A stretch of 64,000 bases of DNA from an uncultured Actinomycetota bacterium (GCA_963695645.1 CAVOHC010000004.1:150948-214947); one strand, 5' to 3'. Numbered from the stretch's first letter, positions 15,874 to 19,873 are shown. Numbers and translations are program-made. Notes: generated from the letters alone by a model not told the origin.

Positions 15874-18609
15874 TCAGCTGACTCCCGTTCCGGAGAGCCG
15901 GACGTGCAGCGTGTGGGTGCCGAGCAGGTCGGTCCAGCTCAGCTGGTAGCTGCCGGTGGTCGCACCGGCCCTGGCCGGGGTAAAGGTGACCGGGATCCGC
16001 AGCTCGTTGCCCGGGCTGAGCGGCAGCCCGCGCGGGATCCGGTAGATCGCTGCGAACGGCGATCTGGGGGGCGCCGCTATGGTCACCGTGGCGGGCAGGT
16101 TGCCGGAGTTGGTGATCTCGATGGTGGCCGTCGCGCGGCGGCCGAGCCGCACCTTGCCGAGCGTCACCCGGGGCCGGGCCGCCGCGACCTTGCTGACCGG
16201 CGGCAGCGCGGCGCCCGCCAGCCGCACCGTTACCCTGATCCCGCTGCTTTCCGCGATGGTGACCGAGCTCGCGGCGGGTCCGGCGCGCCGCGGCGCATAG
16301 GTGACCTGCACGACGATCGATTGCCCGGGCCGGATCGGGGTACCGGGCCCGGGCAGGCCGACGGCTGTGAACGGGCCGGCGGGCCCGGTGACCGACGTGA
16401 CGGTCTCGGTGGCGGTGCCGCCGTTGGTGATGTCGGCGGTCATGGGCACGGCGGTGCCGACCGGTACCTCGCCGGTCGCGTGCTCGTTGGAATATCTGAA
16501 CGACAGCACGCTGGGCTGTGCATAGAGCCCGGGCTCGGTACCGTCGCCGGACAGCGGCACCTGCGTCCCGCCGTACCGTGCGGACGGGCTAATGAACGAG
16601 AGCACGCCTGTCGTGCCGCCCCGGGCCGTCGGCCGGAATGTCACCGGGGCGCGCAGCGAGTCACCTGCCTTGAGCGTGACGGGGAACCTCACCGGCGCTG
16701 CCTTACCGCCGCCAGCGGCCATCCTCACCCGGCCCAGCGTGAAAGGGTCCGGCGAGCGGTCGCCATGGGCGGCAACGGCGGACACGGTGACCCGAGTCGA
16801 TGCGGTGAGCGTAATGGTGCGTTTCGCGGCCGAGCCGAGGCTGGTCCCGCCGAACGTGACGGGCTCGGCCCTGCCGAGCGGCGCCCTGGTGCGCCTGGCG
16901 AAGCAGATCACCTGGCCGCTGGTGCCCACGTACACGTGGCTACTGCTGGTAGCCGGGATCGTGAACTTGGTGGCCGTACCGATCGGTGCCGACCAGATCG
17001 GCCGCATCACGCAGGGCCGTGCGCAGCGAGCGGACGGCACGGCCCGGAACGCGTCAAGCGTGCCTGTCGTGCCGCTGCCGCTAGCGGGCATGGCGGTCCT
17101 GACCACCCACACGACGGCAGACCTGGAGCCGGGCCCGTCCGAGGTGACTACTGGCGATCCTGATCCGAAACTGAACCGCAGCGTGGTGTTGGCCACGTCG
17201 GCCAGTCTCGGCCTGCCCGCCTTACTAACCCTGAGCTTCAGCGCGCGCAGGTAGTCGTTCATGCCCACGTAGTACACGTAATCGGCGGAGCGGCGGGAGT
17301 CGCTGGCAGTCACTGTGGTGGTGTCGCCGAAAACCGCAGGGTGACCCCACTGGCCCCCGAACGGCCCGGTCTTGCTCACGTACGCGTCGCCCCCGCCGGG
17401 GGCCCGCATCCGGCCGCCCAGGCCGTCCCGGTCGAGCAGGAATACCCGGCCGTCCTTGCCGGCCTGTACGAGCAGGCGCGGGAATGCCTTGCTCCCGAAC
17501 GGGAGCCCCACCGGCCCGCCGGATCCGAAGTCGATGTCTGCGGCGTCGAGTGCCGGCGCGTCCCGCGGGCTGAAGAAGTCCCTGGCCACCAGCCGTCCGC
17601 CAGGCAGTACCGCCAGGCGCACCACCGACTCGGCAAGCTGACCGGGCGGTGCGGTGCCCTTTCCCGGCGCGGGGGATACGCCGTTGCCCGACGCCAGGAA
17701 GATCCGTCCTGGACCGTCCGACATCAGGCCGCCTCCGGACTGCCATATGCCGGCCTGCTCGTCGGTCAGCCCGGCCTCATCGGTCCACAGCCGGACCGCC
17801 CGCGTCGAGACGTCCACACCCGCCACGAAACCGGCATAGGGCCGGTCGTCACAGTGCGAGGCGAAACCAGCGTAGACCCGGCCGCCCAGCAATAGCAGGC
17901 CAGTCCGCTGCCATTGATCGAAAGCGTCGAATCTCAGCTGCCGGTCATTGAGCGGGCTGCCGCCTATCGGGACCCGCTCGGTGATACGCCCGGTATGCGC
18001 GTTGATGCCGAACATGCTGAAGACGGGCTTGGTGGGAGACTGCCTGACGATCTCGGCGATCAGGTACACCGCTCCGGTCCGGGGGTCGTAAACCGGGGTG
18101 CTGGTGATCCCGACCGTCGGCACCAGGTCGGTGCAGTTGGTGGTCGCCGCTGACCAGGGCGTGCCGAGGTGATCTGACCATTTCACGCGGCCGGTCGCCG
18201 CGTTCAGCCCGTACACCCAATCCCGCTCGGTCGCCACGATCACGGTATTGCCGACGATCAGCGGCTGGGCGTACACCTGCCCTCTTACCCTCCTGGAGAA
18301 CACCCGACCGAAGTCACCGCCGCGCAGCGCCGCTGGACTCAGGCCGGGTTCATCGGGGTCCCAGCCGGTACGCAGGTTGTCCTGGGAGGCGGTCACGTCG
18401 CCAAGGGCGGCCGCGGCCGTCGTGGCGGGGGCCGCGGCGGGCCGGGTGCTGGCGGGGGCCGCGGTGACTGTGGCGCTGGCGGGGGCCGCGGTGACCGCGG
18501 CGCTGGCGGGGGCCGTGGTGACTGTGGCGCTGGCGGGGGCCGCGGTGACCGCGGCGCTGGCGGGGATCGCGGTGACCGCGGCGCTGGCGGGGATCGCGGC
18601 GACCGTCAT
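15874..18609 (-). CDS. Large PQQ-like beta-propeller protein with three C-terminal choice-of-anchor-D / Ig-like domains; start uncertain
   Basis: The propeller part reads VYAQPLIVGNTVIVATERDWVYGLNAATGRVKWS and continues through later blades. The C-terminus has three units such as VTFGGTSLGSAAKRTITLTAS... and VTLGKVRLGRRATATIEITNSGNLPATVTIAAP...PVTFTP. I place the start at the ATG at 18609 (MTVAAIPAS...). The track ORF runs to 19092 only by reading through the 15-bp repeat array. Confidence 0.7.
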   Translation of the reverse strand: MTVAAIPASAAVTAIPASAAVTAAPASATVTTAPASAAVTAAPASATVTAAPASTRPAAAPATTAAAALGDVTASQDNLRTGWDPDEPGLSPAALRGGDFGRVFSRRVRGQVYAQPLIVGNTVIVATERDWVYGLNAATGRVKWSDHLGTPWSAATTNCTDLVPTVGITSTPVYDPRTGAVYLIAEIVRQSPTKPVFSMFGINAHTGRITERVPIGGSPLNDRQLRFDAFDQWQRTGLLLLGGRVYAGFASHCDDRPYAGFVAGVDVSTRAVRLWTDEAGLTDEQAGIWQSGGGLMSDGPGRIFLASGNGVSPAPGKGTAPPGQLAESVVRLAVLPGGRLVARDFFSPRDAPALDAADIDFGSGGPVGLPFGSKAFPRLLVQAGKDGRVFLLDRDGLGGRMRAPGGGDAYVSKTGPFGGQWGHPAVFGDTTTVTASDSRRSADYVYYVGMNDYLRALKLRVSKAGRPRLADVANTTLRFSFGSGSPVVTSDGPGSRSAVVWVVRTAMPASGSGTTGTLDAFRAVPSARCARPCVMRPIWSAPIGTATKFTIPATSSSHVYVGTSGQVICFARRTRAPLGRAEPVTFGGTSLGSAAKRTITLTASTRVTVSAVAAHGDRSPDPFTLGRVRMAAGGGKAAPVRFPVTLKAGDSLRAPVTFRPTARGGTTGVLSFISPSARYGGTQVPLSGDGTEPGLYAQPSVLSFRYSNEHATGEVPVGTAVPMTADITNGGTATETVTSVTGPAGPFTAVGLPGPGTPIRPGQSIVVQVTYAPRRAGPAASSVTIAESSGIRVTVRLAGAALPPVSKVAAARPRVTLGKVRLGRRATATIEITNSGNLPATVTIAAPPRSPFAAIYRIPRGLPLSPGNELRIPVTFTPARAGATTGSYQLSWTDLLGTHTLHVRLSGTGVS
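18448..18609. repeat. 27-bp tandem repeat, about 6 copies, coding for the N-terminus of the propeller protein
   Basis: Units gctggcgggggccgcggtgac(t/c)g(t/c)ggc lie at 18448, 18475, 18502, 18529, 18556 and 18583. On the minus strand they encode (I/A)PASA(A/T)VT(A/T) nonapeptides directly after the putative ATG. Confidence 0.9.
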
Positions 18610-18628
18610 CCCTAATCTGACAGCGATT

Positions 18629-18928
18629 GAGCAGAGCCGGATTGACCGGAGGCGTATTGAGCAGAGCCGTATTGAGCAGAGCCGTATTGAGCAGAGCCGT
18701 ATTGAGCAGAGCCGTATTGAGCAGAGCCGTATTGAGCAGAGCCGTATTGAGCAGAGCCGTATTGAGCAGAGCCGTATTGAGCAGAGCCGTATTGAGCGGA
18801 GCCGTATTGAGCAGAGCCGTATTGACCGGAGCCGTATTGAGCAGAACCGTATTGACCGGAGCCGTGCTGAGCAGAACCGTATTGACCGGAGCCGTGCTGA
18901 GCAGAACCGTATTGAGCAGAGCCGCCGG
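18629..18928. repeat. 15-bp tandem repeat (gagcagagccgtatt), about 20 copies
   Basis: Nine perfect copies span 18659-18793, flanked by degenerate copies (gaccggagccgtatt, gagcagaaccgtatt, gaccggagccgtgct). The unit has 8/15 G+C. The array begins 20 nt upstream (in gene orientation) of the ATG at 18609. Confidence 0.95.
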
Positions 18929-19516
18929 GCCAGATCGCTGCGAGCGGTGCGGCGGAAGAAATGACGGACAACTGAGAACTCCCGTTGCTGCATGCCGCAT
19001 CCCCCTCGATGCCGGGACCAAGCGCAGATCCCCGGTATCCACAACGAGTAATCATTACGTTGCGGATCGTATCCACATCTGAGGGGCGACATCCTGAGCT
19101 GCGGCTCGTGTCGGCGTCGGCGATGCGTTAGTGCGGCGGCTCAGGTCGGACCGGCACCTGCAGCAGGAATCGTGGATGCCGCGAGCGAGCCGCACTTCGT
19201 GAGCTGGTGCTGCAAAGTGGCGGGGATCGCTCGCGCCCACGATCAGGCAACTGGCTGGCCTGATATTCGGCTGGCTAGCGGTGGCGGTGACCGGCGCCGT
19301 CCTGCTCACAGCTGGGGCAGCGTACCAAGCGCGACTGCGCGACTTGGGCAAGCTGCGAGCCAGCGGGCGGTGCTGAGGAATGCTCGCTCCGACACTCAGA
19401 GTACGGGTGGACGTACGGTCGGTGAGCGGAGATACTTACGCCGGCGGTTGGAGGGCCAGCCGCCGGGCAGCCCGAGCACCCTGCTTGACCTTTTGGCCAC
19501 CCTCCCGGACCCGAGG

Positions 19517-19873
19517 ATGAGCTCAGAAATGCGTGATCTGGAGCGCCTGACCCGGCTGGCGATCGTTCCGCTGCCGGCCGAGATCGACATCTCCAATGAG
19601 GACGACGTCGGGGAGCAGCTGCGCGCCGCCTTCGCCCCAGGCGTCGCCGTCGTTATCGCAGATCTTGGCTTGACGGTCTTCTGCGATTGCGCTGGTGTCC
19701 GCCACCTGATGCTCGCTCATCAGATGGCGGTCTCGGCCAACGCCGAGCTGAGGGTAGTAGTCCAGTCCGCCGGCGTGCTGCGTGTCCTGGAGGTGCTGGG
19801 AGCTGACCGCGTGCTGCGGATCTTTCCGGGCCTGGGTCCGGCGCTCATGGCAGGCCCTGCTGATGCTGGCTGA
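19517..19873 (+). CDS. STAS-domain protein (anti-sigma-factor antagonist family)
   Basis: Starts at M116 of ORF 19172..19873 (ATG after ccgagg). LAIVPLPAEIDISNEDDVGEQL...VVIADLGLTVFCDCAGVRHLMLAH...LRVVVQSAGVLRVLEVLGADRVLRIF is the STAS/SpoIIAA fold pattern. Confidence 0.75.
   Translation: MSSEMRDLERLTRLAIVPLPAEIDISNEDDVGEQLRAAFAPGVAVVIADLGLTVFCDCAGVRHLMLAHQMAVSANAELRVVVQSAGVLRVLEVLGADRVLRIFPGLGPALMAGPADAG

Follow-up and report, generated by a model that had tools for sequence, protein, structure and literature searches.

Two in-frame tandem-repeat arrays in the signal-peptide-coding part of a beta-propeller protein gene from an uncultured Actinomycetota bacterium

The stretch of DNA analysed here (the window, 64,000 nucleotides, GCA_963695645.1 CAVOHC010000004.1:150948-214947) comes from an uncultured Actinomycetota bacterium and carries on its minus strand a gene of 1039 codons plus stop (15874..18993) for a beta-propeller protein. 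It is one open frame, whose domains were assigned with Pfam and NCBIfam and whose start was set from orthologues and from the public gene models P0125 and P0123: a presequence of 198 residues is followed by a PQQ/BamB-like beta-propeller and, at the C-terminus, by Ig-like domains of the ASH/choice-of-anchor D type. The 5' end of this gene is occupied by two tandem-repeat arrays with units of 15 and 27 bp, which are the subject of this work.

With Tandem Repeats Finder (TRF), the 15-bp array amounts to 19.9 copies (18626-18924, 87% matches, score 472) and the 27-bp array to 6.8 copies (18423-18605, 89% matches, score 259), in agreement with the pair of arrays reported at this place in an earlier note made from the sequence alone. 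The 15-mer ATTGAGCAGAGCCGT is matched 17 times with at most two mismatches, whereas shuffled sequence would give 0.09 matches. Of its copies ten are perfect, nine of them in an unbroken row; the nine perfect copies of the earlier note are thus recovered, as is its figure of 53% GC for the unit (8/15, in a genome of 69% GC). The unit has no second site in the 5.6-Mb genome, which rules out a dispersed element, and no inverted repeats of note were found within the arrays. Five of the six reading frames indeed stay open through the 15-bp array, none with gene-like third-position GC (GC3): the three minus-strand frames give 0.62, 0.43 and 0.62, versus 0.86 over the stretch that codes for the mature protein. 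The open reading frame (ORF) listed previously for the YGSAQ frame is present as well, at 18612..19076, and open over 154 residues. For the 27-bp array, coding for (A/T)(I/A)PASA(A/T)VT units, GC3 reaches 0.97. Both unit lengths are multiples of three, and the reading frame runs unbroken for 483 bp through the array region.

Placed in codon register, the 15-bp array spans 18625..18924 on the minus strand and comprises 20 in-frame units (residues 24-123), as delimited by TRF, the register listing and orthologue DNA. The units follow each other as RLCSI, twice RFCSA RLRSI, RFCSI, RLRSI, RLCSI, RLRSI, nine times RLCSI, RLRSI and RLCSI: a 30-bp higher-order repeat lies on the 5' side, nine identical units form the core, and variant units occupy the ends. 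The 27-bp array spans 18409..18605 on the same strand, with about seven units of the AIPASAAVT type (residues 133-195), the two final ones degenerate; its limits derive from TRF, register, GC3 and orthologue comparison.

Where the gene begins decides how these arrays are to be read. We compared the locus with array-free orthologues from the same genus: G004 (86% identical), G001 (78-79%), G005, and the most distant one, G002 (59%). The orthologues of G004 and G005 start with MQQRE(Y/F) and that of G001 with MLRK. Each of the three continues with a short charged stretch that closes in ARRLCS or PRRLCS; the hydrophobic core comes next, and AARA leads into DVTAS, where the mature protein begins. 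The metagenome loci L035 and L036, likewise array-free, share this layout. The G002 protein starts with MALRDY and has neither the RRLCS motif nor an array, the hydrophobic N-terminal stretch being present. The conserved ATG of the orthologues corresponds to ATG 18993 of the window. A ribosome-binding site, GAGGGGG (19001..19007, minus strand, read from the sequence), lies 7 nt upstream of it, with a purine-rich GGA core at the matching place in G004, G001 and G005. Alignment of the four same-genus loci with that start (the window, G004, G001 and G005) further shows that about 85 nt 5' of the ATG are conserved in all four, delimiting a probable promoter or 5' untranslated region at 18994..19080 on the minus strand. 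Finally, P0125 and P0123, the closest relatives, have public gene models beginning with MQQREF, so that their repeats are read in the RLCS frame. Since orthologue start, ribosome-binding site, upstream conservation and these two models agree, the coding sequence is set to 15874..18993; by sequence comparison, the predicted gene start is ATG 18993 on the minus strand, and the LCSIR frame is the coding one. Both arrays consequently fall inside the signal-peptide-coding part.

This start had escaped the earlier note, which weighed only ATG 19092 and ATG 18609. Its view that the 15-bp array forms a 5' leader ahead of the start is not supported, because the conserved ATG with its ribosome-binding site sits 5' of the array. 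Nor is the lack of a normal signal peptide behind any candidate start, as ATG 18993 is a third candidate that precedes the signal-peptide-coding part, nor the dismissal of the LRSIRLCS/LCSIR frame as non-coding, that frame being continuous from ATG 18993. The distance from the array to ATG 18609, given as 20 nt, is 16 nt. ATG 18609 itself is an internal methionine codon, the product of an Ile to Met change. The gene is otherwise intact. Gene callers took this new ATG as the start both for the window gene and for its counterpart in P0002. We rejected ATG 19092: the ORF starting there crosses the upstream region and is not conserved, the frame being closed a few codons 5' of the conserved start in G004, G001 and G005, and the stretch is conserved non-coding DNA. 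The conserved 85 nt (18994-19080) include a TGA(T/C)TAC block. No consensus sigma-70 promoter or terminator was found in 18550-19550, and no Rfam family matches 18994-19080; judging from its sequence, this region may serve as a promoter recognised by a different sigma factor or as a site where a regulator binds.

With the start in place, the altered presequence can be matched part by part with its ancestral form. The unique, charged n-region (18925..18993, minus strand, residues 1-23, MQQREF...ARR) is conserved at the protein level in G004, G005, P0125, P0123 and P0008. Between the arrays, a spacer (18598..18624, minus strand, residues 124-132, AVRLGMTVA) forms the start of the ancestral h-region, by comparison with AVSLGITL of G004 and P0125. 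Two changes in the ancestral core, Ser to Arg and Ile to Met (AVSLGITL to AVRLGMTV, 18607-18620), separate the two, and the second one created the ATG at 18609-18607. The likely signal-peptidase region (18397..18414, minus strand) was placed by aligning presequences by eye: AAALG would be cut from DVTAS between residues 198 and 199, where the orthologues have AARA followed by (G/D/S)DVTAS.

The origin of the units can be read from the same comparison. The orthologue DNA CGGCTCTGCTCGGTC is the counterpart of the repeat unit CGGCTCTGCTCAATA: the codons CGG CTC TGC TCG GTC (R L C S V) of the former stand against CGG CTC TGC TCA ATA of the latter. The flanks of the array are collinear with the orthologues (..GCC CGG before, CTC TGC TCA ATC GCT GTC .. 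after), its onset falling exactly at ...ARR-LCS and its end in ...LCSIAV. From this collinearity, the 15-bp array is a 20-fold in-frame amplification of the five codons R-L-C-S-(V/I) at the boundary between the n- and h-regions. In the 27-bp array, likewise, nine hydrophobic-core codons have been amplified, read as AVPAITALL in the orthologues and AIPASAAVT in the window. The low GC3 of the 15-bp array is explained by two G to A changes that produced TCA and ATA, both rare codons here, before the unit was multiplied. Of all Ile codons of the genome 3.6% are ATA, and of all Ser codons 5.4% are TCA; about 17 ATA and 20 TCA codons are found here within 100 codons.

As a result, the presequence measures 198 residues in the window versus 41-57 in the single-copy orthologues, and contains 33 Arg and Lys and 15 Cys. 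By inspection, the single-copy orthologues have a clear signal peptide of 41-57 residues with RR and AARA; in the window the n-, h- and cleavage parts are still in order, stretched to 198 residues. The cleavage motif has gone from AARA to AALG, and an Arg directly preceding an uncharged stretch of more than 50 residues is retained. The NCBIfam scan returned no Tat-signal family.

Relatives of the protein were collected by a search of 5.8 billion proteins with cluster look-ups, and they differ in the number of repeats. G004, G001, G005 and the metagenome loci L035 and L036 have a single copy of each unit. P0125 (from ENA) and P0003 (from JGI), with identical mature parts, have two of each; P0123 has six 15-bp and three 27-bp units; the window has 20 and 6.8. 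Over 545 compared residues of the mature part, P0123 and P0125 agree at 98%. P0002 (ENA), on a different contig of 497 kb, is identical to the window in its mature part (840/840), yet its 27-bp array amounts to about 4.7 units. The number of units thus shifts more quickly than point substitutions build up, given two versus six copies at 98% identity and 6.8 versus about 4.7 with an identical mature part. The earlier note's expectation of frame-preserving arrays that vary between close relatives is borne out by these alleles (1, 2, 6 and 20 copies of the 15-bp unit; 1, 2, 3, about 4.7 and 6.8 of the 27-bp unit); an invariant copy number, the outcome it had set as refuting, is not what the relatives show. 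Scans of genome and metagenome contigs returned single-copy relatives alone, and none of the eight species genomes of the genus carries a 2- or 6-copy allele. Only one sub-lineage has the arrays.

A sister clade about 67% identical (P0008, P0009, P0138, P0142, P0155 and P0156) has a 12-residue unit, (D/E)xTASRNNLRTG, in 1, 2, 3 or 4 copies. It is located at the cleavage site and mature N-terminus and varies within two clusters at 90% identity. Because this clade has an independent N-terminal variable-number tandem repeat (VNTR), the N-terminus of the protein stands out as a recurrent, tolerant site. P0005 (76% identical) has at residues 9-40 a low-complexity Gly/Asp/Arg/Ala insertion (AGDRAGDTAGGRAGD...) in the charged part of its signal peptide, which adds a third type of change in N-terminal length.

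The locus is one of many in its genome (G000). Counting non-overlapping TRF arrays with a period of 6-45, at least six copies and at least 80% match, we found 208 arrays in it, or 37 per Mb. Comparison genomes were sampled with the identical filter: within the same family the density is 40 arrays per Mb in G001, 27.5 in G004, 22.5 in G015 and 35 in G016; in other families it is 0 in G035 (70% GC) and 5 in G033 (66% GC). Among named relatives, the closest are Streptosporangiaceae assembled from peat and soil metagenomes. In G000, 158 of the 208 arrays (76%) have a period that is a multiple of three, against roughly 35% by chance, and no array of another period in this census is spanned by an open, high-GC3 frame: selection has evidently kept frame-preserving arrays in genes. 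In a rough sort, several further arrays lie in N-terminal tails just 5' of membrane-spanning segments; this sorting into N-terminal, internal and C-terminal arrays by one-sided GC3 is noisy at 69% GC and serves as illustration only. One example is a 24-bp array of 13 copies (G000:C13:219699-220007) in the Thr/Ala/Pro-rich N-terminal cytoplasmic tail before the membrane helix of a signal peptidase I-like protein (..IPSSSMENT). Others in the genome are two 18-bp arrays, of 24.5 copies (C12:1730084-1730524) and 26 copies (C12:288858-289326), and a 71-bp array of 8.7 copies at 99% (C12:1008382-1009000). In a survey of bacterial satellites, whose definition differs from that of our census, 18 bacterial species exceeded 4 satellites per Mb (Subirana & Messeguer 2019, PMC6749651).

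We consider it very probable that the two arrays are hypervariable in-frame minisatellites, products of slippage in a tolerant part, the signal peptide, of a gene for a secreted beta-propeller/Ig-like protein. As a class, the feature is a coding-region VNTR, a known kind: its units are head-to-tail beyond chance, the ORF is of the translated type with a conserved start and continuous frame, the unit lengths are multiples of three, and copy number is polymorphic. What is unusual is its site, a cleaved signal peptide, and the unusually large effect on peptide length. Slipped-strand mispairing or unequal recombination would have amplified two short pieces of the signal-peptide-coding region, the five codons R-L-C-S-I to 20 copies and the nine codons AIPASAAVT to about seven. 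The frame would be kept at every expansion or contraction, leaving the gene intact while the presequence grew from about 50 to 198 residues. The nine identical units at the core, with older variants on either side and a 30-bp higher-order repeat at the 5' end, suggest that recent growth proceeded from the middle of the array. Such arrays probably persist because the signal peptide is cleaved off and its charged N-terminal part tolerates length; they would then be nearly neutral or slightly costly side products of a genome prone to slippage, and no switch built for the purpose. The expected costs would be the rare ATA and TCA codons, the 33 Arg and Lys with 15 Cys, and a weaker core; judging from codon usage, the rare-codon run should slow translation. 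On/off switching by frameshift is excluded, both units being multiples of three. Of the earlier proposal of a contingency locus or variable 5' leader, then, strict on/off switching falls, with frame-safe units downstream of the start, and frame-safe length change stands. Repeat number was not found to switch expression by frameshift or by promoter spacing, as it does in phase variation.

Several observations weigh against this interpretation. The alleles with 2, 6 and about 4.7 copies were read from protein models, not from DNA, and the P0002 model starts at the internal Met and so excludes the 15-bp array. P0002 also reads APRQRRVT at residues 15-22 where APASAAVT is expected, resembling a +1 and a -1 indel in close succession; this pair may be a long-read error, and part of the difference between P0002 and the window may be technical. 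The best 15-residue Kyte-Doolittle hydropathy of the window presequence is 1.89, versus 2.07-2.17 in the same-genus single-copy orthologues, and a presequence of 198 residues with an Arg in the old core and a weaker core may have abolished export.

The first of these points lead to the reading in which the arrays are real and their copy numbers, 20 and 6.8, result from assembly or polishing of a long-read metagenome bin. The genome is a bin of 17 contigs, its relatives are long-read metagenome-assembled genomes, P0002, from a second assembly and identical in the mature protein, differs in its 27-bp array and shows the apparent indel pair, and tandem repeats are a known source of assembly error (PMC6868369). 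The orderly structure of the 15-bp array, from its 30-bp higher-order repeat through nine identical units to variant ends, and the 483-bp unbroken frame speak against it; besides, independent short- and long-read assemblies give two copies twice and six copies once, so that the expansion itself is supported by independent assemblies. We therefore hold an artefact to be quite unlikely; array lengths in long-read bins should nevertheless be read with care, in view of homopolymer-type indels such as those of P0002. The later points would fit a young loss of function, in which the expansions ended export and the protein is cytoplasmic or degraded, a null gene that has not yet acquired stops. The length, charge and cysteines of the presequence, the Ser to Arg change inside the ancestral hydrophobic core, the shift from AARA to AALG, the lowered hydropathy and the restriction of the arrays to one sub-lineage all speak for it. 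Yet the mature part, of 840 residues, shows no damage and recurs unchanged in a second assembly, the Arg directly before the long uncharged stretch implies that the basic signal-peptide layout is kept, and the 2- and 6-copy alleles are otherwise intact, a C-terminal frameshift in P0123 being possibly a sequencing error. A loss of function is thus a tentative and rather unlikely possibility. In an adaptive rheostat, by contrast, the number of units would tune translation or export in a heritable, reversible and graded manner, as a quantitative contingency locus. Copy number outpacing substitutions, the rare ATA and TCA codons of the unit, and the independent expansion of three different N-terminal units in the protein family speak for it. 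Against this, 208 such arrays occur at all sorts of sites and the locus is not singled out among them, unit variants are mostly amino-acid-changing and so give no sign of selection on the peptide, and units of multiples of three rule out on/off switching; we judge it unlikely. Its broader form, in which the numbers of RLCSI and AIPASAAVT units grade production and export and the in-frame minisatellites of Streptosporangiaceae, many of them at the N-termini of membrane or secreted proteins, provide fast quantitative variation genome-wide, strikes us as slightly less likely again.

Were translation to begin at ATG 18609, the array would be a non-coding, length-variable and promoter-proximal 5' leader. 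That ATG is new in the lineage and just past the array, automatic callers chose it twice, the GC3 of the array is only 0.62, and copy-number-variable promoter repeats exist in Actinobacteria (PMC12817950). However, the conserved start, ribosome-binding site and upstream region are all 5' of the array, the unit derives from coding codons in a frame continuous from 18993, and TTAGGG abutting ATG 18609 is ancestral coding sequence and a poor ribosome-binding site. The resulting protein, MTVAAIPAS, would lack a charged N-terminal part; RNA of the array shows less structure than shuffled sequences do (z = +3.5) and has no Rfam match. A leader is accordingly very unlikely, and a structured RNA leader or riboswitch was rejected on the last two grounds. 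There is, finally, next to no chance that the array makes a separate product, either a ribosomally synthesised and post-translationally modified peptide (RiPP) precursor with Cys at every fifth residue, CefA-like, in the RLCSI frame, or a YGSAQ-frame protein. The CefA model of NCBIfam (NF038108) does score 30.4 bits on residues 70-113, against a cut-off of 30, and the YGSAQ frame is open over its 154 residues. But the same model also matches an unrelated 15-bp array (G000:C13:171472-171627, 26.6 bits) and misses the 2-copy allele P0125, which makes the match an artefact of five-residue periodicity. No maturase or radical-SAM domain was found among the genes scanned (13.8-24.7 kb), and the tract is residues 24-123 of a 1039-residue protein, not a small stand-alone precursor gene; the CefA-like precursor was rejected on the periodicity. 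The YGSAQ ORF is absent from the orthologues and finds only unrelated QYGSG low-complexity matches among the 5.8 billion sequences, and was rejected likewise. In array-rich genomes, NF038108 yields false positives on any Cys-containing five-residue repeat.

Taken as in-frame minisatellites, the arrays resemble known systems only in part. The general picture of in-frame VNTRs has been drawn before (Subirana & Messeguer 2019, PMC6749651). Closest are the in-frame VNTRs of secreted and surface proteins, such as the pe/ppe structural variants of M. tuberculosis (PMC12817950): these share head-to-tail units of a multiple of three with the frame kept, strain-level differences in copy number, an origin in local slippage and an actinobacterial host. 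In contrast to them, the arrays of the window are in a cleaved signal peptide and not in the exposed mature part, so that they would alter export or translation and not surface structure, and their host is an uncultured Streptosporangiaceae from soil or peat, not a pathogen. The promoter tandem repeats of M. tuberculosis (PMC12817950) are alike in phylum, in short 5' units and in variation hidden from short-read assemblies; they sit in promoters, whereas the array of the window is downstream of a conserved start and ribosome-binding site and hence translated. The CTCTT repeats of Neisseria opa (PMC4534519) also form a variable tandem repeat in the signal-peptide-coding 5' end of an exported-protein gene, but their 5-nt unit shifts the frame and turns the gene on or off, while units of 15 and 27 nt only lengthen the signal peptide.

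The likeness to CefA is limited to Cys at every fifth residue: the tract in the window is instead an expansion of signal-peptide codons, with no maturase-like domain in the neighbours scanned and with an unmatched 2-copy allele. The ESPR extension of autotransporters and the YSIRK-type signals likewise place a long N-terminal extension before the charged part, core and cleavage site. There, the extension is a conserved motif of some 25 residues whose role is known; the extension in the window is a recent repeat of 100 residues, conserved only in one sub-lineage.

At the level of annotation, internal-Met calls drop the true start both in the window gene and in its P0002 twin, and the relatives restore the 1039-residue model; many genes with arrays in these genomes will call for the same correction of their starts. 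The series of 1, 2, 6 and 20 copies constitutes a natural experiment on the length, charge and rare-codon load of a bacterial signal peptide. Repeats in signal-peptide-coding DNA are known as frameshift switches from Neisseria opa; a version that keeps the frame and only lengthens the peptide was not found in the literature searched. With about 20-40 short-unit arrays per Mb, the family is at the high end for bacteria, a more intriguing lead than the single locus, and the question it raises is why slippage products arise or survive so often there. Should the arrays be merely tolerated by-products, they would be a curiosity of practical value for annotation and strain typing. We find no evidence of a purpose-built mechanism at this locus, which is a striking example of ordinary replication slippage.

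Around the gene lie a class-III aminotransferase, an F420H2-dependent quinone reductase, a divergent STAS gene and RecQ; no functional link to these neighbours is apparent from the domains scanned (13.8-24.7 kb), and there is no tRNA in the window. The STAS-domain gene, of the anti-sigma-factor-antagonist type (19517..19873, plus strand, Pfam STAS), is at a syntenic position in G004 and G001. The gap towards it (region 19100-19516 of the window) measures about 520 nt, versus about 270 nt in G004. The extra intergenic DNA includes a membrane-helix-like fragment, an ORF of 31 residues (19281..19376), which, from its sequence, may be the remnant of a small gene.

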